Shown here: piece after piece, positions 1 to 36,656 of the stretch
Layout: each line of letters starts with the position of its first letter
Numbering within the stretch: the stretch's first letter is position 1
Origin: Macrostomum lignano
Lineage: Eukaryota
Assembly (NCBI GenBank): GCA_002269645.1
Contig: NIVC01001570.1
Location: forward strand, 40,546-104,545
Direction of reading: 5' to 3'
Length of the DNA: 64,000 nucleotides
Notes under the pieces: generated by a model
Seen by the model: only the letters and a program-made list of their open reading frames with translations
What the model was told of the DNA's origin: nothing
Database searches by the model: none
Translations under genes and position numbers: made by a program

Positions 1-214
1 TTGTCTTCAGTGCTGCAACTTACAGCACTTACAACTCTTTTTGTGTTTTTCTCTTTCTCTTTGCTCCCTTTTTCTCATTTTTTCCTTTTCCTTTCCCCTT
101 TTTCGTCTTTTGTTTTTTCGTTTTTTTGGCAGTTAATCAATTTTGCGACTTACTTGGTTGGCCGCCAAATCGGTCGGCCGGATCGGCCGACTCGGCCGAC
201 TGTTGCGCATGTAT

Positions 215-930
215 GGCTGGGGTCGAGAACAAAGGAATTGGAAATCGGGGATAATTGGGGAAAACTGAGAACAATGGAAAAGTAAACATTGGAGAAAAGG
301 TGATAATTAGGTGCGAAAACGAGAACAAAAGAAAGAGAAAATCGGAGAAAATGTGATAATTGGTGGGGGTCGAGAGAACAAAAGAAGCAAAAACGAGAAC
401 AATAGAAGCGGAGGTGGGGTGGGTGTCACATGAGAAATTTGGGAAGGAGAACAATAGCGTGAGAAAAGGTTGCGCAAGAGAGGGGGGTGAGTCATCGATG
501 AGTCACCGAGGGGGAGAAGGGGTCACACGACTTGCGTCACCGTTTGGGAGTTTGAGAGGGGATGGGGAGACGGTGAGCACACAAAGTACTGTAAGTAGAC
601 ACAGGGAAAGAGGGGACAGCGCAGGAAAAGAGTGCAGAGGGAGACAAAAAAAAGGAGGAGGTAGAGAAAGTACAGGAAGAATAGGGCGGGAGCAGAAGAG
701 ATAGGGTAGAGGGGGAGGTACAGAAAGGGGTAGGGGCTCCGGAAAGGCAGGTGTGGCGGCAGGAGAGACGGGACCAAGGCAGCAGGAGAGGTGCAGCAGA
801 GCGGGAGTCTCCAGGCCCGGTCGGAGACCTGGCCGAGTCTCGACAGCTCTGTGCAGAGGGTGCACGGGATAGGAGGCACTTTCGAAAAAGTTCCCATGCC
901 CTATCCCGCGACCAGGGCGTGGTTACTTCA
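215..930 (-). repeat. 3' LTR, partial (U3 portion), copy of 17367-18081
   Basis: By-eye alignment shows about 4 substitutions and one 1-nt A-run indel over ~716 bp. Begins TGAAGTAACC on the minus strand versus TGATGTAACC in the 5' LTR. Confidence 0.93.
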
Positions 931-947
931 CACCCCCACTGCCTTTT
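931..947 (-). promoter_or_regulatory. Polypurine tract (PPT)
   Basis: Minus strand AAAAGGCAGTGGGGGTG directly precedes the TG start of the 3' LTR. Confidence 0.75.
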
Positions 948-1534
948 GTGACGGAACTGGTTCCGTCATCATCGCTGCCCAACATGGAACCACACAGACG
1001 GGAGCGGGATCTCAACCGAACGTGAAATCACAGAATTAACAAACCGCGAGCGGGAATGGAAAAAGGCGATAAAATAGAGGGGATAGCAATAAATTCACAA
1101 AACGAGATACATAGGTTGGAGTGCAATACAGAATTTCAAAAATTTCAACTGTTGCTGTGGCTAAAGTGGGAGGGTGGAAACACAGACAGCGCAATAGTAG
1201 GGAGAAAAATAGCGAATTGTCAACAATAAATTATCATAATTGGATAGAAGCGCAGCTGGGAAAGAGAGGAAACGGGGAAGGGTGAGGGAAGTGGGGAAAA
1301 AGAAGGGGGAAGGGTTGCTAGCACACAGCCAAGGGCAGAGCCTCGGGGAGAATGACGATTACACAGGGGAAAAATACTAATGCAGCGCAGTAAATTAATA
1401 AGCTAATTTCGCCGGGAGTTCAACCGCACGGAGGCCTAGCGTCCTTGAAGGCTCGGACCCCGCTTCAGCCAGTCAGAGGGCTTCGGGGCGATCGGTTGTA
1501 GGCTGGGAGGCGCCGCGCCCTGCGCTGGCCACTG

Positions 1535-1647
1535 TATAAAAGGCGCCACTGATAACGGGAGCCGGCTGCCTGCAACCTACACGGAGTCGCAGTTTCCAAC
1601 CAAGGCACTCAGCGCGATTTTCCAAACTATACAACTACTCGGTAAGT
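1535..1647 (+). promoter_or_regulatory. Candidate antisense Pol II promoter, short non-coding first exon and splice donor
   Basis: TATAAAA at 1535-1541 after a GC-rich stretch; consensus donor CG|GTAAGT at 1641/1642, followed by AT-rich intron-like DNA. Confidence 0.5.
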
Positions 1648-1989
1648 CCCATCACCAACCTGATTTCCTTTCGCCTATACGTTAAACGAAATCTACCCAC
1701 TCGCCATGCCTTTCGTTTTAAACTGAGCCAATTGCAGTAATAATATATGGCCTTTCTTACGGTAAAAGTAGTGAGCAGCCAACACAGAGCCATTTTTAGG
1801 AATTTTTAGGATAATGACACAACAATGACTCGTATATTGGTTATTAAAGTTTAAAAATGAATATTATGGAAGAACCGAATATTAATAGGATAATTTCACA
1901 CACACACACACGACAAACACACAACGCAAGGGGGCGGAAAGGCGGGTCGGACCGGCCGGCGGACGTCGCTCAGCAGGTAGTCAGCATCC

Positions 1990-3339
1990 TTACTCGAAAT
2001 GGGCCTCTTGATTTAGCTGGTACGGGCCATATGCCGCCACCTGAGCCATGGCACTTGCCCATGCTTCCACATAACGTTGGGCTGCCGCGGCCGTGAGCAC
2101 CACTCGGTGCCATCGGCTAGGCAAGATGTCGTTGCGCAGCACGCCCCTCAACTGCGGCAGAGTCGGGATGCCCAGGGCTTGGCATTGGACGACGAAGGCC
2201 GCATTCCGTACTTGTTGCAGCCGTGTCAGAGTTGGTGCAGACAGGGGCGGCTGCGCGATTGCAAAATGCTGCAAAGTGCCACGGGGCACCTCGGCCAGGC
2301 CCGCGTAGCCGGGCTCAACGTCGCCCAGGGCCGCCAACACCCACCCACAGCGGCGATTGAACCGTTGCGAGAGAGTGGCGGCCCAGGCCACTGTGGCAAA
2401 CGGCGCATAGAGGAGGGGCGCAGAGGCCGGCGCGGAGGCCGCAAGAATGCCGTCGTGGATGACGAGAGCCTCTTCCCATTCGGCGCCCTCGCTCAGGAAG
2501 CCCCAGAGCAGCCCTGGCAGGTCCGCAGGAAGCATGCCCCAGCGGCTGGCCAAGCTGGCCAGGCCAATCAATAGCCGGGCTCTCTGGGTTGGTGTCAGTT
2601 GTCTAGTCATCTGAGAGGAGGCTGCGCAGCTGATGATCACCTTCTTGTAGACCGGCCGATCGCAGGTGCTGAAGATTGCTGTGATGGGGGCACAGGACGG
2701 CGGCCGGGCTGTCAGGTGCGATGGTTCCTCATCCACAACCTTGCGGAGGAACTTGGCGGCCTGCCGGACTAGGTCGCCGAGGGCGTATTTGTAGGCGCTC
2801 TGGGCCGCTGCCTCGATGTACATTAACAGCGTATTGTCAACCAATCCCAGCAGGGCCGCTTTTGACAGGATGAGCAGACAGGGCCGGTCCAGGTTGTCGC
2901 GAAGTTGGCGCTCTAGAGTCGCATGCCTGTCCTCGGCCTGGAGTGGGCCATGATAGGACTCAGGCCCGACCCAGTGCACCAGATCCATAGCTGTCGCCGA
3001 AGGTTCGCCAGCCACCTGACCCCAATCGACTTCTTCTCTTTGCAGGGCGATGTCCACACTTCGGCGGCTGTTGGGCAGAACATCACGCAGGCGGCGGGCC
3101 GCCTCGCCGAATTCGGCCGCCAGGTCCGAAATGTCCGCGGTGTCGCCCCCAGCATTGGCCGGGTCGATTGTCTCGTCACCTTCTTCGACCCTGGCGGAGG
3201 CCGCCGCTGGCGGCTCGGGGCCGTCCTCCGCCTCTTGGATGGCGTCACGGGGCCGCTTTCGGCTAACTGGGCTGGCAGGACGCTCAGACGGTAAGCTGGA
3301 GCATAGCTGAATTCGATTGATGGTAGGCTTCGTGTCCAT
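1990..3339 (-). CDS. 449-aa hypothetical protein carried by the LTR element (N-terminal RKRPR NLS-like motif, acidic/disordered N-terminus, Leu/Ala-rich probably helical body)
   Basis: Long intact intronless GC-rich ORF flanked by AT-richer non-coding DNA, with its own TATA/CCAAT promoter ~95 nt upstream. No family recognised. Confidence 0.8.
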   Translation of the reverse strand: MDTKPTINRIQLCSSLPSERPASPVSRKRPRDAIQEAEDGPEPPAAASARVEEGDETIDPANAGGDTADISDLAAEFGEAARRLRDVLPNSRRSVDIALQREEVDWGQVAGEPSATAMDLVHWVGPESYHGPLQAEDRHATLERQLRDNLDRPCLLILSKAALLGLVDNTLLMYIEAAAQSAYKYALGDLVRQAAKFLRKVVDEEPSHLTARPPSCAPITAIFSTCDRPVYKKVIISCAASSQMTRQLTPTQRARLLIGLASLASRWGMLPADLPGLLWGFLSEGAEWEEALVIHDGILAASAPASAPLLYAPFATVAWAATLSQRFNRRCGWVLAALGDVEPGYAGLAEVPRGTLQHFAIAQPPLSAPTLTRLQQVRNAAFVVQCQALGIPTLPQLRGVLRNDILPSRWHRVVLTAAAAQRYVEAWASAMAQVAAYGPYQLNQEAHFE

Positions 3340-3384
3340 GTCAAGCTGGATAGTTCAGAGAATGCTTCAGCGATTGAAGGACAG

Positions 3385-3552
3385 AATGATTTCTCTGATT
3401 GATGATTTCCAGCTCTGGCAGGCGTGGGTCTTCTTATAGTGCCGGGGCTGGCTTCCCATTGGTTGAGCACATTGGGAGGCACACCTGCTGCGGCCGGGGT
3501 CGCCGTTGGCTTGGGACCGCTCGCTCTAGTCTCCGTGCGCTCTGATTGGCTG
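3385..3552 (-). promoter_or_regulatory. Internal promoter for the 449-aa ORF
   Basis: Minus strand: CAGCCAATCAG (CCAAT at 3549-3545), AACCAATGGG (3462-3458), TATAAGA (3438-3432), Inr-like TCATT/TCAAT ~30-45 nt downstream, ATG at 3339. Confidence 0.65.
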
Positions 3553-3885
3553 GTTCCGCCGCTTCCTGTTTCCTCACCTGTGAGAAGGGGCCAGACCCGA
3601 GACCACCTCCGGTCGCGCCCGCGGCAGATCCGTACTCCAGCCGACAGAGATCGCACTCCCACCTCACATGCACACATTCAGATCAGGCACACAAATTAAT
3701 TTGATTAATATGAATAGAAGAGGGATTTGGGAGATTAGACTCCGGAGGATAAATGATGATGCGGCCCAACTCCCTTCGATTTCTTCCTTCAACGCCACGC
3801 GCACGCAGTTCTCATCCATGCCTCCGAGACCCTCATAAACTTAACAGCCGAAAGAATTCGAAAGAGGAATTAATCATTAATTTGA

Positions 3886-4253
3886 CTGCCACCAGTTTGA
3901 TGTACTATTATAAAAGAGAAAGGGGAACCTACCACCATCTTGGCGCATTACCAAAGAAAAGAAAAGGAGGATCAGCCACCATTTTGAGAGAGGTTGCTAG
4001 GGAAAACTGCCACCAATTGTACATTAACAGGGAAGAGAAAGAGGGAACCCGTCACCACTTAGAGTGGATTGCCCGGGGAAACTGCCACCATTTGCCCTTC
4101 TACCAGAGGAGAGGAAGACGAAAAACTGCCATCACTTAGAGGTGTATCATTAAAAGAAGGCGGGGAAGAAGGCTACCACTACTTGATCACCTAGAGCTCA
4201 AGGGGAGGAGAGGGAATGAAGAAAGGAAGAAACCCCCAGGAAGGCCACTACCA
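3886..4253 (-). repeat. Degenerate array of ~8-9 PBS-like motifs (TGGTGGCAG consensus) with 33-47-nt period and variable spacers
   Basis: Plus-strand CTGCCACCA-like motifs at 3886, 3929, 3973, 4007, 4049, 4082, 4126, 4173 (weak at 4245), most preceded by a purine tract. Confidence 0.7.
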
Positions 4254-4344
4254 CACGCCATAAAGTTAAAATCCCCATCTATCTACATCCTAATACCCGG
4301 CTAGTTCCCTACTTCTATTTTATCCCTTAAATTCTCATTTTCAG

Positions 4345-4751
4345 GATTCCGGCCGCTAGTAGCCGAGCCCATCCTTGAAGAGGAGTCCGACTACGAAGCG
4401 CCCGAAGACAGCCATTCAGAGCCGGACGCCCCCTCTGATTCTGGGCCGGCTGCGCCATCTGGTGGCATAGGCGCCGCGGCTCCCGGGCCATGCGACCGCC
4501 GGGCCGCCAGCGAACCAGCGTCCGGGGCCGGTTGGCATCCGGTACCACCGCCGTTGTCAGCCCGAGCGCACGCTCCGCCGCCGGTCGCCGCGGTGACGCC
4601 CGTGGCTGCCGCTCCACAGCCCTTGCCAACCCCTGTGGTGGAGGCCGACGGCTCCTGGCATTTGGTCGTGCTGTCGACGGCCCTAATAGCCGGTCTCACA
4701 ATGCACTGGCTACTGCTCTTGGAGCTATTTCTGCGGCTTCCCAACTGCTGA
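4345..4751 (+). CDS. Putative terminal coding exon of an antisense gene: acidic segment, Pro/Ala linker, C-terminal hydrophobic (TM-like) helix
   Basis: Acceptor TTCTCATTTTCAG| at 4344; open frame xFRPLVAEPILEEESDYEAPEDSHSEPD...WHLVVLSTALIAGLTMHWLLLLELFLRLPNC*; ATTAAA at 4936-4941. Start codon not located. Confidence 0.45.
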
Positions 4752-5744
4752 TGCTGGTGGTTCTTAATGCTTACTTACTATTTCTGAACTATCTGTCCCC
4801 ATAACTTGACTTTAATTACTTACCTGACTTTACATTGACTAAACCACTGGCCTACTCTAAACTAATTGCTGCCCCATTTGCCTGATAAACTTAATTACAT
4901 TGAAGGCCCCCCCCCCTATTGCCTCATCGAAACCAATTAAAAGTTTCCCAAAATCGGACTTTCACAAAGTGTGAACAAACACACGAAATCAGACCTAAAG
5001 GTGCTAATTTCCTACGGTCCCAGACTTCCATTGTTCCCAGAAAATCTTGAACAGCGGGGCAGGACCTCCTGTGGAGCAGACCCATAGAAATTTTACTAGT
5101 TTCCAAGTTAATCCTATATATAATACTAAAAATGAAAATCTTGCTTGCTTGCTTGTAATCGATTAGAGAAAAAGTGGTTTAACCGATTTTCATGAGACTT
5201 GCACTGTTCAATCAGAAATTTTCCCGGGACGGTACATGTATCTTGGCTAAGAAATTGCTAAATTCTAAAGGGATTAAATATTCGAAAAACATACTTTTTT
5301 GCAAAGGTCAAGCAAACTTTTCGACTTGAAATGCATTGTAAGAATGCTAGAGAAAAAACTGACGACTGGTTGAATTCTGATTCTGAAATAGATTGCATCA
5401 TAACTGAAATGTAACTCCGACTTGAATTGCGTCACAGTATTGAAAATGCAGTGTGGAAGCGTAGCACCAGACTTGATTTAGATTGCGTAACCATATTCTC
5501 AACTTTAATTGAGACTGACACTGACTTGCCTGGGAAATTGATTATGTCATAACTGCTTCGTGAGTGAGTGTTGAATTATATAAGTGCTACAATTTCATTT
5601 ATAAATTCGATAAGATCTAGCCTAGATGTGAACAGACTGGACTGCTAATGCAGCGACCTGGGTTCGAATCTTAGTAGTGAAAATTTTTTTATTAAAAGCT
5701 TTTATTAAAAAAATAATAAAGGACTAAAGGCGTCATGCAAAAAA

Positions 5745-6830
5745 TCAGAGAAGCGTCATGTAAACAATCATAGAAGCGTCATGTAAACAATCATAGAAGC
5801 GTCATGTAAAAATCATAGAAGCGTCATGTAAACAATCATAGAAGCGTCATGTAAAAATCATAGAAGCGTCATGTAAAAATCATAAAAGCGTCATGTAAAC
5901 AATCTTAGAAGCGTCATGTAAACAATCTTAGAAGCGTCATGTAAACATCATAGAAGCGTCATGTAAAAATCATAAAAGCGTCATGTAAGCAATCATACAA
6001 GCGTCATGTAAAAAATCATAGAAGCGTCATGTAAACATCATAGAAGCGTCATGTAAACATCATAGAAGCGTCATGTAAAAATCATAGAAGCGCATCCTGC
6101 AAAAATCGTAGAAGCGTCATGTAAACAATCATAGAAGCGTCATGTAAAAATCATAGAAGCGCATCCTGCAAAAATCGTAGAAGCGTCATGTAAATAATCA
6201 TAGAAGCGTCATGTAAAAATCATAGTGAGTAGAAGCGTCATGTAAAAAGTCATAGAAGCGTCATGTAAACAATATTAGAAGCGTCATGTAAAAATCATAG
6301 AAGCGTCATGTAAAAATCATAAAAGCGTCATGTAAACAATCTTAGAAGCGTCATGTAAACAATCATAGAAGCGTCATGTAAAAAGTCATAGAAGCGTCAT
6401 GTAAACAATATTAGAAGCGTCATGTAAAAATCATAGAAGCGTCATGTAAAAATCATAAAAGCGTCATGTAAACAATCTTAGAAGCGTCATGTAAACAATC
6501 ATAGAAGCGTCATGTAAAAAATCATAGAAGCGTCATGTAAACAATCATACAAGCGTCATGTAAAAAATCATAGAAGCGTCATGAAACAATCATAGAAGCG
6601 TCATGTAAACAATCATAGAAGCGTCATGTAAACAATCATAGAAGCATCCTGCAAAAATCGTAGAAGCGTCATGAAAAAAATCATCGAAGCGTCATGTAAA
6701 AATCATAGAAGCGTCATGTAAAAATCATAGAAGCGTCATGTAAAAAATCATAGAAGCGTCATGAAAAAATCATAGAAGCATCATGTAAAAAATCAAAGGA
6801 GCGTCATGAAAAAATCATAGAAGCCTCATT
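5745..6830. repeat. 22-23-bp minisatellite (AGAAGCGTCATGTAAAAATCAT) inside Helitron 1
   Basis: Direct tandem copies visible. Confidence 0.95.
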
Positions 6831-7727
6831 TTAAAACTAATGAAAGTGTCATTTAAAAAATTAAGAGGCATCATAGTAGAATAAAAGAAGCGTCATGTCA
6901 GACATGAAGGGTGTCATGTAAAAATTAAATGAAGCTATAGTGCTGTGCTGGGGAGAAAAACTGTGACGTCAAGGCTCACAGAGAATAACTGAGATTACGG
7001 GGGGGGTTCTGAGATGTCAAAGCAAAAGTCAGATGCTACTTCAAAGTTCATGTACTTTACTCCATTTTTTATTACATTCTTTGTTGGCTCGCCACGGGGG
7101 GTGCTGATAGAAGAAGAGTCATGTAAAAAATAAAAGTAGCACTATGTATACATAAAAGAAAAGTCATGTCGAAGTTAAAAGATTCATTTGGGAATGGCTA
7201 CGATGTCAAAGCTTGGTGGAAATCGTTATAGTGCTGTGATTCTTAAAGAAGGAATCACTAAAATGTCAAGGCTTAGGGGAGAAGAATTGCTGAGATTTCA
7301 AGGCTTTAGGTTGGGTTAAAGTTAGGTTTAGGTCAGGTGTGGGTTGAGGGTTATATTTTATCGGGTTTCAAGGTTAACAGGGGATTTTTTAGATTTCAAG
7401 GTTTATGGGGGCCATCGCCGACATGTCAAGGCTTACGGGGTGAATAGCTGAGATGTCAGGGCTCACGGGGGTATAAATGAGATTTCAAGGCTAAAGTCAG
7501 AAGCTACATGTAGTTTATTGAAAACTTTTTATTCCGATATTTGATGCCTCCTCAGGGGAGGGATTGCTGATAAAAAAAGCGTAATGTAGAAAATAAAAGA
7601 AGCTTCATGTCGAAGTTAAGAGATTCATTTGGGAATCCCTACGATGTCGAGGCTTGCAGGGAATCGCTATAATGCTGTAGTAGTGCTATAATGACTCTTA
7701 GAGAGAATTACTGAAATGTCAATGCTT

Positions 7728-7794
7728 CAGGGTTAGGTTAGGGTTAGGGTTAGGGTTAGGGTTAGGGTTAGGCTAGGGTTAGGGTTAGGGTTAG
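7728..7794 (+). repeat. Interstitial telomeric repeat (TTAGGG)n; degenerate copy near 7306-7345
   Basis: ~10 TTAGGG units. Confidence 0.9.
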
Positions 7795-8016
7795 AAGGTT
7801 GACAGATATTTTTAGATTTCCAAGGCTTATTGGGGGCATTGCTGAGATGTCAAGGGGGGAAGTTGATATGTTAAAGCTTGTGGGGGGGAATTACTGACAT
7901 GTCAAGGCTTACAAGGTTTGACAGGAGATTTTTTAAGATTTCAAGGATACATGTAGCTTATTAAAAAAACATGTATTGCATTTTTTGGCTCCCCAACGGG
8001 GGGCGTAGATTGCTAG

Positions 8017-11000
8017 TCCTATATACTAAAATGAGTTGTCTGTATGTGGGTAGGTATGCGATAGATTTTAGAAAAAATGGCTCAACTGATTTTCTTCAAA
8101 CTTGCACCATTCGATCAGAAATTTTCCTGGGACGGTACATGCATCTTGGCTAAGAAATTGCTCAATATTAAAGGGATTAAATATTCGAAAAACATGCTTT
8201 TTTACAAAGGTCAAGCAGCTCTTTCGACCTGAAATGCATTGTAAGAATGCTAGAGAAAAAACTGACTGACTGAATTTCAATTCTGATAAAGATTGCATCA
8301 CAACAAGTTGAAAACAGTGCCGAAGAAATGCACACACAACTTGATTTAAATTGCGTAACAATATTGCTAACTTAAATTGACACTGATACTGGCTGACTGA
8401 GAAATTGATTATGTCATAACTTTTTACTCTAACCGATTTGCTCTAACCGAATTGCGAAGAACCGGTTCGAATCTTAGTAGTGCAAAAAGATTTTTTTATT
8501 CAAAAACCTTAAAAACACAAAATGCTAAACACAAAAAAGCACAATGTCAAACATCAAAGAGCCACCATGTCGAAGATTAAAGAGCCATCATGTCTAACAT
8601 TAAAGAGCCACCATGTCTAACATTAAAGAGCCACCATGTCGAACATTAAAGAGCCACCATGTCAAGCATAAAAGGACCACCATGTCGAACATTAAAGAGC
8701 TACCATGTCAAAAATTAAAGAGCCACCATGTCTAACATTATAGAGCCACCATGTCGAACATTAAAGAGCCATCATTACATTAAGGTGCCACTAGGTCAAA
8801 CATGAAAGAGCCACCATGTCTAACATTTACGAGTCACCATGTCTAACATTTTCGAGTCACCATGTCAATTATTAAAGAGCCATCATGTCAAACATTAAAG
8901 AGCCATCATGTCAAACATTAAAGAGCCACCATGTCAAACATTAAAGAGCCACCATGTCAAACATTAAAGAGCCATCATGTCAAACATTAAAGGACCACCA
9001 TGTCAAACATTAAAGAGCCATCATGTCAAACATTAAAGGACCACCATGTCAAACATTAAAGAGGCACCATGTCGAACATTAAAAAGCCACCATGCTGAAC
9101 ATTAAAGAGCCACCATGTAAAAATTAAACAGCCACCATGTCTAACATTAAAGAGCCACCATGTGGAACATTAAAGATCCACCATGTCGAACATTATAGAG
9201 CCACCATGTTGAACATTAAAGAGCCACCATGTCAAACATTAAAGAGCCAGCATGTCAAATATTAAAGAGCCACCATTTCAAACATTAAAGAGCCATCATT
9301 ACAGACATTAAGGTGCCACCAGGTCAAACATTAAAGAGCCACCATGTCTAACATTAACGAGTCACCATGTCAAGTATATTCGTGACTCCATGTCAAACAT
9401 CAAATAGCCATCATACCAAACATTAAAGAGCCACCATGTCGAAAATAAAAAATCCACCATGTAGAACATTAAAGAGCCATCATGTCAAACATAAAAGATA
9501 CACAATTTCAAACCTAAAAGTAAGCGTCATGCCAATTTTAAAAGAGCCACTATAGAGCTAAGGAAATTGTTGCACTAGCTACTTATTGTCTGGTGGATGC
9601 TTACTACTTGGGGATGCTTACTATCTGGGGGATGCTTGCTATCCGGGAGGGGGGATGCTTCCTATCTGGGGGATGCTTGCTATCAGGGGGATGCTTGCTA
9701 TCTGGGGGATGCTTGCTATCTGGGAGAATATTAAAGAGCCACTATGTCGAACATTAAAGAGCTACCATGTCTAACATAAAAGAGGCACCATGCCAAACAT
9801 AAAAGAGCCACCCTGTCGAACATTAAAGAGCTACCATGCCAAACGTAAAAGAGCCACTATGTAGAACATAAAAGAGCCACCATGTCAAACATTAAAGAGC
9901 CACAATGTCAAACATTAAAGAGCCACCATGTCGAACATTAAAGAATCATCATGTCAAACATAAAAGAGCCACCATGTCAAACGTTAAAGAGACACCATGT
10001 CAGACATTAAAAAAAACCGAATCAAACATAAAAGAGCTACCATGTAGAACATAAAAGAGCCAAAAGAGCCACAAACATAAAAGAGCCACCATCTCAAACA
10101 TATATGTGACTCCATGTCAAACATAAAAGAGCCATCATGTCAAACATTAAAGAGCCACCATGTCGAACATTAAAGAACCATCATGTCTAACATTAAAGAG
10201 CTACCTTGTCAAACACTAAAGAGCCACCATGTCGAACATCAAAGAGCCACCATGTCAAACATAAAAGAGACACCATTTCGAAAATTAAAGAGCAACCATG
10301 TCAAACATTAATGAGACACCATGTCAGACATTAAAAAAACCCCGATTCAAACATAAAAGAGCCACCATGTAGAACATAAAAGAGTCACCATGTCAAACAT
10401 TAAAGAGCCAACATGTCAAACATAAAAGATACACAATTTCAAACCTAAAAGTAAGCGTCATGCCAATTTTAAAGGAGCCACTATAGAGCTAAGGAAATTG
10501 TTGCACTAGCTACTTATTGTCTGGTGGATGCTTACTATTTGGGGATGCTTGCTATCTGGGGGATGCTTGCTATCTGGGAGGGGGGATGCTTCCTATCTGG
10601 GGGATGCTTGCTATCTGGGGGATGCTTGCTATCTGGGAGGGGGGATGCTTCCTATCTGGGGGATGCTTGCTATCTGGGAGGGCGGATGCTTCCTATTTGA
10701 GGGATGCTTGCTATCTGGGGGATGCTTGCTATCTGGGGGAATATTAAAGAGCCACTATGTCGAACATTAAAGAGCCACCATGTCAACCATAGAAGAGCCA
10801 CCATGTCGAACATAAAAGAGCCGCCATGTCGAACATAAAAGAGCCACCATGTCGAACATAAAAGAGCCACCATGCCAAGCATAAAAGAGCCACCATGTCA
10901 AACATAAAAGAGCCACCATGTCAAACATAAAAGAGCCACCATGCCAAACATGAAAGAGCCACCCTGTCGAACATAAAATGCTTGCTATCTGGGGGATGCT

Positions 11001-11315
11001 TGCTATCTGGGGGATGGTTTGCTATTTGGGGGATGCTTGCTATCTGGGGGATGCTTGCTATCTGGGGGATGCTTGCTATCTGGGGGATGCTTGCTATCTG
11101 GGGGATGCTTGCTATTTGGGGGATGCTTGCAATCTGGGGGATGCTTGCTATCTGGGGGATGCTTGCTGTCTTGGGATGATTTATTTTTGCATTGCACTTT
11201 ATTTGAGCAGTTTGTCTGTTGTCTTTGAGAAGGCTTTATCTGGCTGTCTTTTTGTTACCTGTAGAGAGCAGAGATTCTATCCACATGTCCCCCAACGGGG
11301 GGCGAAGATTGCTAG
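8017..11315 (+). mobile_element. Non-autonomous Helitron (copy 2, related family, head-to-tail with copy 1)
   Basis: Starts TCCTATATACTAAAATG directly after the CTAG of copy 1; ~8085-8500 is homologous to ~5180-5690; ends CCCCAACGGGGGGCGAAGATTGCTAG|T. Confidence 0.85.
8555..11170. repeat. Interleaved 23-bp (TAAAGAGCCACCATGTCAAACAT) and 18-bp (GGGGGATGCTTGCTATCT) minisatellites inside Helitron 2
   Basis: Tandem copies; the block ~9480-9760 is duplicated at ~10400-10770. Confidence 0.95.
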
Positions 11316-11545
11316 TATTTACTGATAGGGAATTAACGCCTACTGTACGGGCCTAATTTTCGAGCTAAAATCTTAGATATTTAAACAACACCAACGAGCA
11401 CGAGGTCACAACATAAATTCGAGTAATAGAGGGCATACGTAAATACGCGAAAAGCGGTCCCCAACGGGGCAACACGAGCAAAATTTCGACACGCGAATCG
11501 GGGGGGGGGAATTAAGCAATCACTGGCTAGCTACCGATCTGTTAC

Positions 11546-12070
11546 TCAGCGGGGGTCGAATGGGAGACTCACACCTAGCAAGTAAACCTTTTCTGTTCGA
11601 TAGTCTATGATAGCATGCGTACTGGCTAGAAAAGCACTACCCAGGAGGGAAACTGCTGCTGAATTGCCAACGACCAGAAAGAGGATTCTCACCTCTTCTA
11701 GCCCAATAACTGCTGTGAGGGTGGCCTGGCCTAGCATCTCTAATTCATTGCCCGTGTAGGACACGGCCTTCACACATGGGGGCTCCAGGGCCTCCACACT
11801 CTGTCCGGTAATTTTAGTAAAGTCTTTGACTGTTAGCAAAGACAGCGCACTGCCCCCATCTGCCAGGAGGCGGGTGGGAACATTCTCAATTGGCAACTCT
11901 ACAACAATATCTCTCCCGCGTTGTCCTCTAGCTGGTCTTGGCTGATAGAAATCGGGCACCTTCTCAAATCTAAACTTCTTGCTGGGCGGACGTGGCAGGT
12001 TAAGCTGGGCCCTAGAGAGGGAACGGGGCTGAGTTCGGGCCGGGCCATTCAGCCCTCCCACGGGTTTCCC
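11546..12070 (-). CDS. Retropepsin-like aspartic protease, -1 frame relative to gag, terminated by TGA with no downstream RT
   Basis: LLADGGSALSLL (D[ST]G-type motif, here DGG) and LLGSAFL (LLGRDFL-type motif); frame overlaps the gag end at the slippery site. Confidence 0.85.
   Translation of the reverse strand, partial: GKPVGGLNGPARTQPRSLSRAQLNLPRPPSKKFRFEKVPDFYQPRPARGQRGRDIVVELPIENVPTRLLADGGSALSLLTVKDFTKITGQSVEALEPPCVKAVSYTGNELEMLGQATLTAVIGLEEVRILFLVVGNSAAVSLLGSAFLASTHAIIDYRTEKVYLLGVSLPFDPR
12006..12070 (-). promoter_or_regulatory. -1 programmed ribosomal frameshift signal
   Basis: G GGA AAC heptamer (12070-12064), 8-nt spacer, stem GGGCTGA/TCAGCCC; loop GGCCC could pair with downstream GGGCC (pseudoknot). 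Confidence 0.8.
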
Positions 12071-13494
12071 GAACCCGGGGGCTCTTCAGGCGTGGGAGGA
12101 GGAGGCATCAGAGCTTGCGCGCGCAGCTGGGCGAGCCTCTCCTGCCTCTCCCTGGTAGCCTCGTCTAACATATCTCTGCCCCAATCCTCTAAATCTTGCC
12201 TATGGCGATCGGGTGGCGCACGAAGCTGCAATTGCTGCTGCTGCACACCCGGCGCCGGCGGCGTGGGCGCCTCCTGAATTGCAAGCGGCGGGGGCTGGGA
12301 TTGGCGCCAGTTCCTACTGTTATTAGAGCCGCCCTGCCCCTGCCTCCAGTTCCTGTTGGGAGTGGCGGGGCGAGGGGGCCTCATCTGCTGGGGCAGCTGG
12401 GCAACAGACTCTGCTGTCGCCTTCATAGTTTCATTGAGCTGCACCAGCTGGTTGCGCAGATCCTTTTGCGTTTGCTCTAGCGCGCCCAACCTCTCTTGCA
12501 TCTCTGATAGGCCGTCACTGTCCTCCTCCGTCTCGTCAGCTTCCTGGTTCACCATCCTGACCCACTTGCGAGGGGGCCTGGGTGGCTGCTGAGGTTGCAG
12601 ACGGACTTCGGTGCGGGACTCAGACCTGGGCGGGCCACTACTGTCCCATTTCCCGGCTAAGTCTGCGGCTTCTAACAGGGCTTGCTGCTGTTCTAACACC
12701 TGCTCAATTGTCTGCCAGCGACGGCTCAACAGATCTTGTCTGACCTGGCGGGGGAGCTTAGCGTGTTCCAAGTAGGTGTACACGATTTCTTGTTCTCTCT
12801 GCTCACCCTGAATCTGAGGAAACATGGCCGTTATCTGAGATCTTATCATAGCAGCAAAAGCACTATGTGATTGGCCGGGTTTCTGGCTCAGATTCTTCAG
12901 CTTATTTCTCTTAGCCAGATCAGTGTTGGCCTCGCCCAACTGCTCTCCTAATCTAGATACGAACTGCTCAAAGGGCAATTGCCCGTCCAATCCTAAGGCT
13001 AAGTTCTGAAATTCACCTGGGAGGTGCGAGATGAGCACCTGCTTCCTAGCCTGATCTCCTACAGTTCTCTCCGCGTCCAGCTTGTAGATCATTCTCTCTA
13101 CCCATTGCACAAAACAGTGTTCGCCGGGAGAGAACTTCTCTACGTAGATTTTCGGCCTCTGAGCTTCTTGGCCCATGTTTAGCTGGTTAAACGCATTGGC
13201 TATAGCAGCAACTAAGTCTCCTAGCTGCGGGACTGCCTGAGGAGGATTCTGGGCTGCGTCCGGGGGAGCAGCGGCGGCTGCTGCGTCACCCTGATTGGGA
13301 GCGGGAGCTGCTACTCCTTCATCTGGTTCCTCAACTACTACTGCTTCTGGAGGCTGAGGGACCTGGTTACCAGCGGCTGCGGCCATTGCGGCTGCGGGGG
13401 CGGCAACTGCTGGGGTGTCAGCGGCCGAGGGTGGTTGACCAGGGGCGTCTGCGCACACAGCTTCTACGACCCTATCTCCACGCGCCCGTGACAT
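12049..13494 (-). CDS. gag: Gag (Ty3/Gypsy capsid-like), 481 aa from MSRARG
   Basis: KFSPGE..FVQWVERM and MHR-like LKNLSQKPGQSHSAFAAMIR; coiled-coil-like segment; no CCHC knuckle. The 66 extra in-frame upstream codons in the ORF track are low-complexity and probably non-coding. Confidence 0.85.
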   Translation of the reverse strand: MSRARGDRVVEAVCADAPGQPPSAADTPAVAAPAAAMAAAAGNQVPQPPEAVVVEEPDEGVAAPAPNQGDAAAAAAPPDAAQNPPQAVPQLGDLVAAIANAFNQLNMGQEAQRPKIYVEKFSPGEHCFVQWVERMIYKLDAERTVGDQARKQVLISHLPGEFQNLALGLDGQLPFEQFVSRLGEQLGEANTDLAKRNKLKNLSQKPGQSHSAFAAMIRSQITAMFPQIQGEQREQEIVYTYLEHAKLPRQVRQDLLSRRWQTIEQVLEQQQALLEAADLAGKWDSSGPPRSESRTEVRLQPQQPPRPPRKWVRMVNQEADETEEDSDGLSEMQERLGALEQTQKDLRNQLVQLNETMKATAESVAQLPQQMRPPRPATPNRNWRQGQGGSNNSRNWRQSQPPPLAIQEAPTPPAPGVQQQQLQLRAPPDRHRQDLEDWGRDMLDEATRERQERLAQLRAQALMPPPPTPEEPPGSGNPWEG

Positions 13495-15846
13495 GTGAAT
13501 GCCGGATAGCTGGGGGAGTACCCACCACCGGGAAGGAAAAGAAAAGAAAACCGGGGCAACTACAGGTAAAGACCGAAAAGTTGATCCGAAACACACAAAC
13601 ACACTCACACACACACAAACACAGACAAAACCCACATACTTGCGGCGTCGAAGAAAACAAATTGAAAAACGGGTGGCTCCACATAATTCCATTTAGGCAG
13701 TCCTAACGGCTTCACTCGGCAAAGCACACTGACTCAAACTGCGGCTACCACTACCAGTTGTCTATGGCACATCCTGACAGGGAAAAATTGGCTATTCAGA
13801 GAGACTTGACCTTCATTTTGCGGCCATGCTAGGGAACCCAAATGCCGACCGTAAACGGACTTACGGCACCTGTACAAATTCTCCCCTAGGGTTGCGCGCC
13901 GGACCCCATTTCCTTAAGAAAGCTACTACGAAGAAGCGTTGGCGCCTGGACCCAAAAACCCAAGTGGCGGGAGCAATCCCCATGGAGGTCCTCCCACTTT
14001 ACTGCCCTTGCACAGCCGGAAAACCGTCGGAGTCCAGTGGGGCTTCCACCTCAGGACTACCAATCTTGTACACGCAGCTTCACAAAAGGCGGGAATCCAG
14101 CTCCCCTACGTCTAGCAGAATCCACAAAAACCAAGACCTCCCCCTTCTGTTCAGAGCGAAGGCGCGCAGCGGGAGTCCAGACTAAACTGTCCCCGAAGTT
14201 TTCAGGTTAGGCGGATTACAAGCCTGAAACTCTCGCCCGCTTTCCTAGGATAAACAGACCTAAGTGAGTATCTTCCTGAAATGCTTGCCCCTCCGATACT
14301 CCACCTTTGCTGCAGCTCGAAATAGCATACTTGGGACCTTTATCTGATGGCGGAGAAAGTCCTACAGTTGTCAGCCTCTCCACTTTACTGTACTTGAACG
14401 CCCGGTTCTACCAGGAGACAGCGGTACCTCCATCTAGGTTATTCCAAGTTGCCAGAGACGTCAACCCGTCTTATTGACCTTGCGGGGCACTGGGGTGGCA
14501 CTCTATGTACCGGGGCTTTACATTAGGGGACTGCATGCAACCCTGCGTCTAAGCGCTTAGTGGGCTGCAGTGGCCAGAGGGGAAAAGAGTTGCGCAATAG
14601 CGCCTTCCTGGGCCAGGCTGACAAGTCGGGCAGGAGCGCCGTTCTACCGGGTCGGGCTGATTGGCACACCCACCTCCCCTATCAGACTGACAGCAGGGGG
14701 GAGGAATTACTAAAGGAGGAGAATGCAGCAGGAAACATTACGAGATCACTGGGGGCCACCAGACTTCCAGTACACCATTCCAATACTCACTGAACTCCAC
14801 TATCAATAGGATACTATGGGATCTACTATTTCCAGCCACTGCACCAGCCCAAATGCAACCAAAGCAGTTACTACCGGGTCTGCAATACAGTGGGGAGAGT
14901 CAGCAGACACGTTGGGATCGAATCCCAGCCATGAAGGCACCAGGGGTTACCGCAGAATTCAGGTCCGGGCTGATCGCAGGTATTCCATAGGAGGTGACAC
15001 TTTTTTTAGCCCGAGATTTTTGAGTCACACTGATACCCTACAGAGATACAATCACACCGCTATTCCCATTCCTGCGAGACTTTGGTATCCCCCAATGTTT
15101 CCAAGGCCATGACTACTGCTTCCCTTACTATGCATATATAGCGAGTTCCCCATAGCCCTTGATAGCTGTTCATTCTAATGGACAAACAAAACACGCTCCG
15201 GTCTCTACGCATTTCTAGGATTAACTGAGCGATCAGGGAGAGCGACTGTTACACTCCCCCGAGTAAAAGAAAGAGGTAGGACAAAGGAAAGAAATGCTTC
15301 GCTTCCAGCTTCCCTGTGCTTGCGTGATGAGGCTTCCGTACCTGGCTGGCTGTCCACCTCAACACTCACACAGTTCTGCTGTAGGCTAGGCGAGAGAAAG
15401 AAAGGGAGGGGAAATAAAGCATATTACCATGAAATAGAAAGTGAGTCCGGAAAATTCACTTTCGCAGTTCTTCACACACTCCGTTACCAGGTAGCTATTC
15501 TGATTGTAATCAAATCCGCTCGTCTACCACTTCACACTTTCTAGCGCTGAAACTGATCGGCTAAATTAATTTTAAATTGAATCAGGGGCTTTTGGCGAAT
15601 GAATGAATTTGGAAATTTCGAATGAATTGAACGAATTCGCAGCCCGAAAAATTTGAAAAGTTACATTAATATTTTTGGATTTTGTTGCCTCACGCCATGG
15701 GAGAAGAGAATGACGATTGGCGATTTTTACGATTGGTAGATTTAGACATGGCACTCTTTGCGCTTCGGCCACCATTCTGAGGGATGCCACAGGTGCGCTT
15801 GTCACATCTAAACCACCAGTCCGAAACTCAGCGCTGTTTGCACCAG

Positions 15847-15864
15847 ATCCCACCGCTGCCACCA
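15847..15864 (-). promoter_or_regulatory. Primer binding site, tRNA-Leu
   Basis: TGGTGGCAGCGGTGGGAT, 18 nt complementary to the 3' end (AUCCCACCGCUGCCACCA) of eukaryotic tRNA-Leu(AAG/TAG type), 3 nt from the LTR end. Confidence 0.92.
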
Positions 15865-15867
15865 TTT

Positions 15868-18081
15868 TGATGTAACCGCCCTTGTCGCCTGTCCGCTCCG
15901 TAGAGAGACGAACGCATGACTAGAGGGGCAATGACCGTAGGCTGCCTATGACCGGGCAATGACCTGACGGACCTCCAGCACCAGACTGTCCCGCCCACAT
16001 GATTAGTAGCTTTGGTAGCGCTTCGTGACCAGAGGGCCAAGGACCCACATGGACCCCACCTGTAGCCAAGGTGCAATAGTTGGTCACTCGGTCATAGTAT
16101 GACCGAGTGGCTGCCACCACTCTATGTGACCTGGCGCACCTGGATCTTTCTACCAGACCTCTCGAGGCTAGAGCCCCGCCTGGATTGGTTACCAGGGGAT
16201 TTAGGCTAACAGGGGAGACGCATGCAGCCGAGTACAGGGACTCTGCTTGGGGCATGATCGGGAACTCTGGGCTCAATCCTGGAGGATTTCTCAGCAGGGG
16301 ATCCTTTGTGGCTGTGAGCGAGGCTGACTTGCGACTTTGATTACTAAGAGTAGTATGAGGCGAACATGTACTGTCTACAGTTTAGATTGCTCAGGGCGAA
16401 GGGACGCGTTAGCATGGGGTTGCAACCTTCCTACTGCCATTCTGTGCCAAGACTCGCTAATCCCTCTACTGCACGCACACGCGGCCCCGCAGCACGCACT
16501 CACAGGCGGGCTTGCACGGGGAGAGGCCATTAGCTTACCCAAACTTCCTTATGCTTTGCCACCCCGGGAGAAAGGCTTAGCAAGCCATGAGTGAAATGAT
16601 GGTGAAAGATTGAATAATGATGAAGTTAGTTAATAGTTAATAATTAGGCCCTTAGGCAAATAAGCAGGCAATTAGGCGGCTTCACTATTGAGTAAAATAC
16701 AGCAAAAGATACGGTATCACAATTGGCTCAGCTCTCTAATCAGACAATGGAAAATAGGCAAACCCCGGATAAGCAAAGGCAATTAGAGCACAAATTAGTA
16801 GTAGGAACTTACCGGCAGCTGCACAGAGAGAGAGAGAGGCGGAGTGACCGAGGGCGGCTGTAGGCTGCAGTCAGGCAGACGGTGAAGCGGCGATGCGCTG
16901 GAGCGACGAGGCGCTGATGTAGATCAGGCGATGCTGATGATGCTGGGCGGTATCAGACCGCTGGCCGATAGGCGAGCTCACTTGGGGAGCTAAGGATAAC
17001 TTGGCGGTAACAGACCGCGGACCGGCAGGGATTCGTCTTATAGACGAATGGGTCAGAACTCAATCTGACAGCAAGTCCAAAGAAGGACGAGGAGAGGAAC
17101 AGAGATAACTCAGTTGAGTATTCTCATGCCGAAATCGCTTCCTTTTATAGACCTCACAGCCGCCTCCTCAAGGTCGTTACCATGGCTCCCTCTCTCTGAT
17201 TGGCTGCCGGCAGAATGACGTCAGAATGAGTCATGATGAGAAGCATGAGACCGGCATAGCAACATGAGAAATCGGGAAATTGCGCAATCCGGAGGTGGGG
17301 TGGGGGGATAATTGGCGCAGCGGGTGGTCGCGAAAGTGTTGCGCAAGCAAACATTGAGAACAATAGGGCTGGGGTCGAGAACAAAGGAATTGGAAATCGG
17401 GGATAATTGGGGAAAACTGAGAACAATGGAAAAGTAAACATTGGAGAAAAGGTGATAATTAGGTGCGAAAACGAGAACAAAAGAAAGAGAAAATCGGAGA
17501 AAATGTGATAATTGGTGGGGGTCGAGAGAACAAAAGAAGCAAAAACGAGAACAATAGAAGCGGAGGTGGGGTGGGTGTCACATGAGAAATTTGGGAAGGA
17601 GAACAATAGCGTGAGAAAAGGTTGCGCAAGAGAGGGGGATGAGTCATCGATGAGTCACCGAGGGGGAGAAGGGGTCACACGACTTGCGTCACCGTTTGGG
17701 AGTTTGAGAGGGGATGGGGAGACGGTGAGCACACAAAGTACTGTAAGTAGACACAGGGAAAGAGGGGACAGCGCAGGAAAAGAGTGCAGAGGGAGACAAA
17801 AAAAGGAGGAGGTAGAGAAAGTACAGGAAGAATAGGGCGGGAACAGAAGAGATAGGGTAGAGGGGGAGGTACAGAAAGGGGTAGGGGCTCCGGAAAGGCA
17901 GGTGTGGCGGCAGGAGAGACGGGACCAAGGCAGCAGGAGAGGTGCAGCAGAGCGGGAGTCTCCAGGCCCGGTCGGAGACCTGGCCGAGTCTCGACAGCTC
18001 TGTGCAGAGGGTGCACGGGATAGGAGGCACTTTCGAAAAAGTTCCCATGCCCTATCCCGCGACCAGAGCGTGGTTACATCA
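15868..18081 (-). repeat. 5' LTR (2214 bp)
   Basis: 10-bp terminal inverted repeat TGATGTAACC/GGTTACATCA; PBS adjacent; U3 duplicated at 215-930. Confidence 0.9.
17143..17233 (-). promoter_or_regulatory. LTR core promoter
   Basis: AP-1 TGAGTCA 17227-17233, CRE TGACGTCA 17216-17223, CCAAT 17203-17199, TATAAAA 17149-17143; splice donor CCG|GTAAGT at 16812. Confidence 0.7.
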
Positions 18082-18329
18082 AGCGTCTGTTTTAAATGGA
18101 GAGTACCTTTTTATTTTACATTTGCGCGCACGCTCATGACTCATCTATGTTCTGCCTCTCACTTCTCTCGCCTGGCTTAAAAATATCTGCGTTTATAATA
18201 ATAGGCTTAAGGAAGAACATACAATGTGAACTCGAAATATCGGCACTTAGCTTTAATATCAGCGTTACCATGTCAGTGCTTTGGGTTTGAGCACTGTTCC
18301 CTCTCCCCCTTCCCCCTCTCTCCGTTTAT

Positions 18330-18830
18330 CTCTCATAGTTTGTTGGATAGATTAGCAATCCATTATCTCTCATAGTCATAGTTTGTTGGATAGATTAGCA
18401 ATCCATTATCTCTCATAGTCATAGTTTGTTTGATAGATTAGCAACCCACTATCTCTCATAGTTTGTTTCATAGATTAGCAACCCACTATCTCTCATAGTT
18501 TATTGGATAGATTAGCAACCCACTATCTCTCATAGTTTATTGGATAGATTAGCAACCCACTATCTCTCATAGTTTATTGGATAGATTAGCAACCCACTAT
18601 CTCTCATAGTTTATTGGATAGATTAGCAACCCACTATCTCTCATAGTTTATTGGATAGATTAGCAACCCACTATCTCTCATAGTTTATTGGATAGATTAG
18701 CAACCCACTATCTCTCATAGTTTGTTGGATAGATTAGCAACCCACTATCTCTCATAGTTTGTTGGATAGATTAGCAATCCATTCTCTATCTTTCTTTTAT
18801 CTCTCATAGTTTGTTGGATAGACTAGCAAT
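18330..18830. repeat. 37-bp minisatellite (TATCTCTCATAGTTTATTGGATAGATTAGCAACCCAC)
   Basis: Tandem copies. Confidence 0.95.
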
Positions 18831-19500
18831 CCATAATATTTCTATGGTACGCATTTGAATTGGCTCATTTAGAAGTCAGAATTTGATCGCGGCAGAACAC
18901 CAGCACAGAGCAGCTACAGTGTATCAGCAATCGCACACAGAGCAGAGCCTTCTGGAGTTTCACGCTCGGATTAATAAAATCTAGAGCTCAAGTAAATTCA
19001 ATTTCAAGTCTAGAACTGAAAATTGCTGATTGCAAAGAGGGAAAAGTGCAACCGCTGGTTTTCAAGCTGGTTTTTACTGATAACACAGCATTTCTTCCAG
19101 CTTGTAATTATATCAGCCGAAACAAACTGGTTAGTTAACATCTGGCAAGACAGGCATACAGGACAAGCCTTAAACTTTATTCATATCAACCAACTGGTGG
19201 CACCAGTAACTATGATTTTTTTACATAATTTGAAATTTCAAAGCCAGATACCAGTTAATACAAGCTAACCCACATTGACTCTCAGCCAATAAGAATCGCG
19301 CCCACTCCAACTCCCCTCTCTCTCTCTCAGCCAATGAGAATTCATTCATTCTCATTTCAACCCCATCAACCCCAACAATTCATTCACCCACCTCAGCGAT
19401 CCCTCCTTTAGCCAATGAGAATCGCACTCATTCCAACCCCCCTCCTCTCAGCTAATTGAGAAAAGAATCGCACCCACCCTAACTCCCCCTCGGGGGGGGG

Positions 19501-19690
19501 GGCGTAGCCCAGCGGTCTAGCGCAGGCTCTGGTGTGCCAGCGACCCAGGCTCGATTCCAAGTGCAGTCACATTCATTTGGGGCTGAATTGGAATCTCGGT
19601 TTGGCTCTGCTCGTGCAATTAACGGCCTTGAGAGCCAACCCCCAAGGCGCAGTGAAGTGTACATCCCTAACGATAAAATAAAGTTAGGGC
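19501..19690 (+). mobile_element. tRNA-derived SINE-like element
   Basis: A-box-like GGCGTAGCCCAGCGGTCTAGCGC and B-box-like GGCTCGATTCC; no cloverleaf 3' end. Confidence 0.55.
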
Positions 19691-19859
19691 CGCTGTACAC
19701 TCCTGTGTGAGTGTGTGCCTGCGTACGTATCCGCGCGCTTGTGTGCCTGCTCAGAGGAGTCGGCGGAATGGGCAGTAATGCCTCTTGCCGGTTGTGTGCC
19801 TATGTCGCTTAAAGTGCGCCAGGGTGCACACAACCCCCCTGCCTCTAATAAAAAAAACT

Positions 19860-20190
19860 CCCCCTCTCCCCAGCCAATGAGAATCGCACCCACCCTAACT
19901 CCCCTCTCTCCCCCAGCCAATGAGAATGGCACCCACCCTAACTCCCCTCTCTCCCCCAGCCAATGAGAATCGCATCCACCCTAACTCCCCTCTCTCCCCC
20001 AGCCAATGGGAATCGCACCCACCCTAACTCCCCTCTCTCCCCCAGCCAATGAGAATCGCATCCACCCTAACTCCCCTCTCCCCCAGCCAATGAGAATCGC
20101 ACCCAACCTAACTCCCCTCTGTCCCCCAGCCAATGAGAATCGCACCTACCCTAACTCCCCTCTCTCCCCCAGCCAATGAGAATCGCACCC
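19860..20190. repeat. ~40-bp CCAAT-containing minisatellite (CCCCAGCCAATGAGAATCGCACCCACCCTAACTCCCCTCTCTC)
   Basis: Tandem copies, plus dispersed degenerate copies at 19280-19490. Confidence 0.9.

Positions 20191-20283: not shown

Positions 20284-36656
<16,373 letters not shown>

Follow-up and report, generated by a model that had tools for sequence, protein, structure and literature searches.

The closest described counterparts of the array reported here are the second primer-binding sites (PBSs) of gypsy and Ty3. The available part of PMC1635307 gives the Drosophila gypsy PBS a length of 11 nt and describes, for gypsy and (as cited there) Ty3, an additional primer-tRNA site remote from the PBS and close to the 3' terminus of the genomic RNA; pairing at these second sites involves the anticodon/T arms, which lets a single tRNA hold both ends, and the one in gypsy is unneeded for cDNA synthesis and has been proposed as a bridge of the RNA ends. 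HIV-1 isolates of the MAL type carry one partial PBS copy, generated by duplication and placed directly behind the PBS (PMC3185550, accessible portion). Retand elements, a plant lineage, combine a variable-number array with an antisense ORF in the same Ty3/gypsy region, and PBS-derived units are not described in the accessible text of PMC11963269. TR-GAG elements are LTR elements with Gag and without RT, under 4 kb and with one ORF in the account available from PMC4350172. Finally, 3' tRNA fragments silence elements at the PBS, where the targets described in the available parts of PMC7472051 and bioRxiv 10.1101/2025.05.12.650695 are near-full PBS matches and a decoy array is not among them.

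The window, by which I mean the whole stretch of 64,000 nt analysed here from Macrostomum lignano contig NIVC01001570.1, contains an LTR element with an internal array of degenerate copies of its own LTR-end/PBS junction. Like the second sites of gypsy and Ty3, the array would offer extra primer-tRNA sites remote from the PBS and close to the genomic RNA's 3' end, but its eight sites repeat PBS-type acceptor-end pairing together with the LTR-end dinucleotide, and the units match 9 nt at the CCA end only, with none of the pairing outside the acceptor end that marks the gypsy/Ty3 type. It shares with the MAL-type isolates the partial copying of the PBS by duplication, although here there are eight copies about 5.4 kb downstream, and with Retand the combination of array and antisense ORF. 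The carrier resembles TR-GAG in having Gag without RT, but it is an element of about 13 kb with a protease, and its only same-LTR RT relative is itself without protease, so neither half is complete. As with targets of 3' fragments, the units complement the CCA end. A literature search that covered subscription papers thinly returned neither an account of PBS junctions arrayed inside an element nor one of an LTR family divided into a Gag-protease half and an RT half, and mutually dependent halves are not mentioned in the accessible part of PMC13570524. I regard the array as a real feature, kin to the known secondary primer sites and 3' tandem arrays, within an unusual two-partner element.

The array lies on the minus strand at 3886..4215. 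On the sense strand of the element each unit reads as an LTR-end-like CA, 2-3 nt, the nine PBS bases nearest the CCA end of the tRNA, and a pyrimidine tract. The cores of eight solid units start at 3886, 3929, 3973, 4007, 4049, 4082, 4126 and 4173, with core-to-core spacings of 43, 44, 34, 42, 33, 44 and 47 nt (range 33-47). The sequence-only reading had counted eight to nine motifs at this spacing; eight stand, while the ninth (4245..4253, minus strand) has 3 mismatches and is 72 nt from unit 8. Its further claims that unit 1 equals the true junction (15856-15874) at 18 of 19 nt, and that unit 3 has 12 nt in common with that junction, proved correct. Composition does not produce such matches: 2000 dinucleotide shuffles of 3860-4270 never came below 3 mismatches to the junction, the expected number of matches of the 18/19 grade in the internal region is about 3e-6, and the six cores with at most one mismatch from the junction core compare with a shuffle mean of 0.05 and a maximum of 2 (2000 shuffles). 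The 18/19 match, set against the shuffles, upholds the derivation of the array from the element's own LTR-end/PBS junction.

The likeness to the PBS has a sharp boundary. In the three most divergent arrays, which supplied 20 units, agreement with the junction is 0.70-1.0 over the nine core positions, and the three PBS positions that follow score 0.15, 0.05 and 0.0, so what had been described as PBS likeness is retained for 9 nt at the CCA end and gone beyond the ninth base. In the same 20 units, the base immediately outside the CCA pairing is the most variable (G2, T10, A2, C6). The T-rich stretch with the terminal LTR dinucleotide TG is mostly retained.

CRISPR arrays consist of short, near-identical repeats separated by variable spacers that are acquired and unrelated to one another. 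A CRISPR-like layout with non-identical spacers had been noted for the present array, but its spacers turned out to be homologous to one another and not unique (spacer-spacer alignment score 371 versus 283 +/- 20 for 500 shuffles, maximum 338), its repeats are degenerate, and its host is a eukaryotic retroelement. Because the spacers are mutually homologous and a higher-order repeat of 77 nt is visible, the array must have grown by tandem duplication; with units homologous across core and spacer and variable in number, it is a decayed tandem duplication and not a CRISPR-like record. TRF did not report it (below threshold), an Rfam scan of window positions 1-20000 gave no match, a tRNA gene search of the whole window found none, and the matches of a genome-wide pattern search for paired cores were dominated by unrelated minisatellites.

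The element, about 13 kb long with a protease and two extra ORFs, is present in the window as a single minus-strand copy. It has the TG...CA LTR ends, the PBS after the 5' LTR and the polypurine tract before the 3' LTR of a Ty3/gypsy LTR element. The 5' LTR (15868..18081, minus strand, 2214 bp) has 10-nt inverted termini, holds one 10-nt PBS echo at 16111 and is 99.2% identical to the LTR of an RT-carrying partner; the 3' LTR remnant (212..930, minus), preceded by the polypurine tract (931..947, minus), is 99.2% identical to the 5' LTR and cut at 212. The true PBS of 18 nt (15847..15864, minus) is complementary to the 3' end of tRNA-Leu(AAG/TAG) with CCA. The alignment to host tRNA 3' ends that the sequence-only reading had proposed bears this out, in that the PBS complements this genome's tRNA-Leu(AAG/TAG) genes plus CCA and the unit cores pair with the CCA end. 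A degenerate PBS echo (15766..15774, minus), 90 nt downstream of the PBS, is present also in the RT partner.

A gag ORF of 481 aa (12049..13494, minus) has matches of 24-28% to Gag of complete elements, with no Pfam match and no CCHC knuckle. Its end is overlapped by a retropepsin protease frame (11546..12085, minus) with the catalytic Asp in D-G-G, which matches the solved retroviral-like aspartic protease 1 at E 5.7e-7. The protease (11546-11917) is the same protein in dozens of copies, with D-G-G here versus D-S-G in a second family, family B. RT, RNase H and integrase are absent after the protease. A foreign insertion of 6.2 kb (5113..11312, no strand assigned), made of minisatellites and other repeats, is missing from the other copies compared; with it discounted, the array is the stated 5.4 kb downstream of the PBS. 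An extra sense ORF of 449 aa (1990..3339, minus) has its own CCAAT/TATA-like boxes at about 3433-3555, and its changes by codon position relative to C100, the most divergent copy, are biased to the third (183 of 351, versus 56 and 22). Pfam gave no match for this ORF, a comparison with proteins of 246-786 aa gave no homolog at E<=0.001, and an extra ORF in family B matches it weakly (25% over 148 aa).

The partner was reached via Gag search matches at 27% identity. Compared with the window-type element, its LTR is 99.2%, its 5' UTR 98.7% and its 3' UTR 98% identical, and it has the same PBS, while its coding part is one ORF of 1553 codons with a diverged Gag-like start followed by RT, RNase H and integrase in Ty3/gypsy order. 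It occupies at least 10 genomic places; array, antisense exon and extra ORF were absent from all seven that were examined, so that in this family the array is found in the Gag-protease half only. A protease profile matched 6/6 complete control elements and 0/4 RT partners (3 of family A, 1 of family B), the window element for its part does not hold Gag, protease, RT, RNase H and integrase together, and protease and RT never occurred together in the copies examined, which came from searches that score best candidates only. LTR, PBS and UTRs are thus common to two elements of complementary coding content. Because young LTR pairs are present in both halves in addition to this complementarity, the halves appear mutually dependent, and each would move only with the other's proteins. 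Family B, whose LTR is unalignable and whose PBS is the same, is split likewise into two halves; a Gag-protease versus RT-integrase split in two families with proteases 41% alike is notable by itself. Complementary LTR pairs have reportedly been found in plants. Protease matches at first assigned to a 'family C' were rejected as degraded fragments. Protease-less RT-RNase H-integrase elements (C936, C2925, C2803, C3095) were seen with LTRs and UTRs common with Gag-protease elements.

Copies of the junction occur elsewhere in the clade. All 10 of the Leu-primed elements with long LTRs that were examined, drawn from 8 families, carry U5 junction echoes, which decay from full 18-nt copies close to the PBS to copies of 10-12 nt further in. 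Five short-LTR Leu-primed elements, from three young families, had no echo and a PBS of only 11-13 nt; an echo of the own PBS was found in 0/11 LTRs of elements with other (non-Leu) primers, mostly short ones. Three of 20 fetched elements were dropped for want of a resolvable LTR pair. That junction duplication is common in the clade supports a mutational origin. In family B, a single internal copy of the junction, again with a core of 9 nt, lies in the 3' UTR of both partners; of 15 loci, this copy was intact in 9, degraded in 2 and absent or not reached in 4. Restriction of such sites to the RT-less half is therefore not general, given its presence in both partners and its degradation in 2/15. 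The recurring limit of 9-12 nt fits acceptor-stem pairing and the mode of copy formation alike. In addition, a motif of 9-10 nt located 160-360 nt upstream of the PBS is common to the unalignable LTRs of families A, B, C20/C73, C100b, C85 and C1568, and two of its variants resemble half of a CTCF site.

To follow the array through the genome, 55 genomic places of the Gag-protease type were examined, of which one is cut by a contig end, leaving 54 scorable; C25, C3635, C497, C498 and C4369, where the array region was not reached, are not counted. The array query or pattern search found (or also found) 37 of these copies, and 17 were found by protein only. All 54, including all 17 of the latter, retain 3-6 cores within one mismatch. 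The promoter side of the extra ORF is present in 33, the cassette is missing in 19, and other deletions affect 2. Unit number is variable among the 42 distinct arrays, losses of 76 nt are common, and units 6 and 7 are damaged in the commonest subfamily. C100 has a different duplication set with the motif retained.

Whether cores change less than spacers, as the sequence-only reading had implied, depended on the copy compared when units were matched by spacer only: cores differed less against C100 (5/54 versus 41/174, p=0.021), but against C513 the contrast was not significant (10/54 versus 40/158, p=0.36). Paralogous cores are 82% alike and spacers 64%, versus a shuffled baseline of 61%. Compared with non-coding flanks, which may be constrained too, cores were no better conserved. 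Among changes in distinct core alleles, 8/36 were G-U compatible, which gives no sign of a wobble-preserving bias, and 15 were G-to-A and break pairing. Constraint on the cores, as judged from these comparisons, appears modest, and the purine-rich spacers may simply be faster-mutating.

None of 100 shuffles folded as poorly as the sense RNA of the array (z +3.9), the two array windows have the highest z of the 20 windows of the element, and across four arrays sense under-folding ranges from z +1.7 to +3.8. The antisense strand is under-folded too in this copy (z +2.8), which makes under-folding a weak sign. Predicted accessibility is 0.41 versus 0.31 +/- 0.07, a level equalled by 3/60 shuffles, and predicted whole-core opening is below the local median. 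The predicted duplex with the tRNA 3' end is -12 to -21 kcal/mol for the units versus -39 kcal/mol for the PBS.

An antisense transcript crosses the region. In contigs of four putative RNA runs there are plus-strand GT..AG joints from 1641 to 3046 (2 runs) and from 3290 to 4345 (2 runs), each in two studies, and the joined forms occur in 0/244 fetched genomic loci. Intron 1 (1642..3045, plus strand), with a TATA-like box upstream at 1535-1541, is followed by exon 2 (3046..3290, plus; ATG at 3050), intron 2 (3291..4344, plus), which encloses the whole array, and exon 3 (4345..4751, plus), an acidic, proline-rich frame with a hydrophobic C-terminus; both introns are GT..AG, the phase of exon 2 fits exon 3, and the compatible exons give an antisense ORF of 215 codons in all. 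Unspliced contigs, whether sense or antisense, also span the array. No joint in the contigs of the 4 runs uses the pyrimidine tracts as sense-strand splice acceptors, an absence that weighs little there. The antisense promoter side and first donor are found also in the RT partner, which is without exons 2 and 3, and in family B the corresponding place likewise holds an antisense ORF.

I tentatively favour, as the leading account though one that could well be wrong, the view that the array is retained as a set of accessory sites at which tRNA-Leu docks on the genomic RNA by its 3' acceptor end. The array is a tandem amplification of a junction copy truncated to 9 nt, carried by the Gag-protease half only; on the docking view, tRNA-Leu would anneal at the units. 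A tRNA held in this way could help the RT-less RNA to collect both primer and the partner-made, RT-bearing Pol, or might alternatively tether RNAs for packaging; docked tRNAs would seldom prime a product that integrates. Docking is favoured because PBS identity ends at the ninth base and the base outside the CCA pairing is the most variable, because the cores diverge less than the spacers do, both from C100 and between paralogues, because the array persists in 54/54 copies while the adjoining ORF cassette was lost in 19, because 0/7 RT-partner copies carry it, because its sense RNA is under-folded, and because the internal copy of family B has the same 9-nt limit. Pairing of the acceptor end alone would be close to a working length, given the PBSs of 11-13 nt in young families and of 11 nt in gypsy. 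Against docking stand the C513 contrast and the flanks, the frequency of pairing-breaking core changes together with the damaged units 6 and 7, the barely raised accessibility and low whole-core opening, the occurrence of the internal copy in both partners of family B, and the absence of own-PBS echoes from families with other primers (0/11), which gives no primer co-variation to point to. A bolder extension, which I consider unlikely, is that the lineage split into two obligate partners and that the multivalent tRNA-Leu trap of the RT-less half became an adaptor pulling RT-integrase into particles. The array in any case bears on how an RT-less LTR RNA gets primer and Pol in trans and on what tandem arrays located 3' in Ty3/gypsy elements do. 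A candidate ligand can be named (the tRNA-Leu 3' end), some natural copies have lost units or carry damaged ones, and the partner, identical in PBS and alike in LTRs but free of the array, serves as a built-in control.

The main rival to docking is neutral carriage, a somewhat unlikely but serious account in which junctions are duplicated recurrently and one internal copy was amplified by template slippage and carried along inside an intron. The U5 echoes decaying away from the PBS speak for it, as do the homologous spacers with their 77-nt higher-order repeat, the variable unit number with frequent 76-nt losses and the pairing-breaking core changes, and tandem arrays do lie between pol and the 3' LTR in other elements, including about half of Retand in the accessible text of PMC11963269. 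It accommodates less easily the core-spacer contrast against C100 and among paralogues, the under-folded RNA, and an array lost in 0/54 copies next to a cassette lost in 19. A neutral array would still document the copying of primer-site junctions into the interior of an element. The idea that the units bind tRF-3 of tRNA-Leu and divert it from the real PBS, or serve as an extra target, came from the sequence-only reading and seems rather improbable. In a MusD reporter screen, mutations in the CCA pairing relieve silencing most and seed mismatches not necessarily so (bioRxiv 10.1101/2025.05.12.650695, available part), and the CCA-end half is just the part that the eight sites retain in open RNA. 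Pairing, however, covers only 9 of the 18-22 nt of the 3' fragment, falling short of the extensive complementarity of described targets and leaving the units without a seed match, at duplex energies well short of that of the PBS, whereas the accessible text of the review PMC7472051 has tRF3b needing its seed and tRF3a highly sensitive to mismatches. Sites on the same RNA would moreover attract silencers to that RNA, the RT partner with the same PBS carries no array, and splicing removes the array from the antisense RNA. That last result also weakens the proposal that antisense RNA mimics tRNA 3' ends, the array being part of intron 2.

It is improbable as well that a DNA-binding protein recognises the cluster of units as an enhancer, insulator or silencer set between antisense exon and internal promoter, with PBS likeness reflecting origin only. 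The short motif with variable spacers lies 330-700 bp from the internal CCAAT/TATA promoter in a layout like the insulator known from gypsy, and the near-identical U5 motif of unalignable LTRs starts with AGG in two of them and so could not pair with CCA. The junction resembles a YY1/Pho site, but the T that YY1 requires after CCA is present in only 10/20 units, so that an invariant CCAT core is lacking; furthermore, the array occurs without the promoter in 19/54 copies, and this account leaves the under-folding unexplained. Alternative priming, by which tRNA-Leu would prime internally and the LTR-end-like dinucleotide would give the cDNA an integrase-ready end, I consider very improbable. The order of PBS core, 2-3 nt and TG is that of the real junction, and PBSs of 11 nt occur in young families; even so, 9 nt is shorter than the shortest PBS found here, the second site of gypsy is dispensable for cDNA synthesis in the available account (PMC1635307), and 0/54 scorable copies terminate at the array, which weakens the suggestion that such priming is productive. 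An antisense protein-coding repeat is scarcely credible: an ATG at 3900 opens 79 codons across six units in this copy, with recurrent C-H-H-L-like words, but the units do not have lengths divisible by three, the region lies within an intron, and the frame was rejected on frameshifting indels and on 17 nonsynonymous versus 2 synonymous changes in C100.

Several minor observations were made along the way. The window contains a host-like low-complexity exon of 530 codons without Pfam match (29557-31149, minus strand) and an exon of a class I aminoacyl-tRNA synthetase (PF00133; 20236-20964, minus strand). The search returned a single match for a Leu(CAG)-type PBS. C16 has, 157 nt upstream of its PBS, a U5 junction copy in which 11 nt agree with the tRNA end of Leu(CAG) and not of Leu(AAG/TAG), and this copy is possibly the fossil of an earlier primer. 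The outermost PBS of C1568 and C1946 has a 2-nt insertion, with an intact 18-nt copy 69-72 nt inside U5. C251 (6366-6460) and C246 carry complete LTR-end plus PBS junctions in tandem, with periods of 35 nt and 59 nt.
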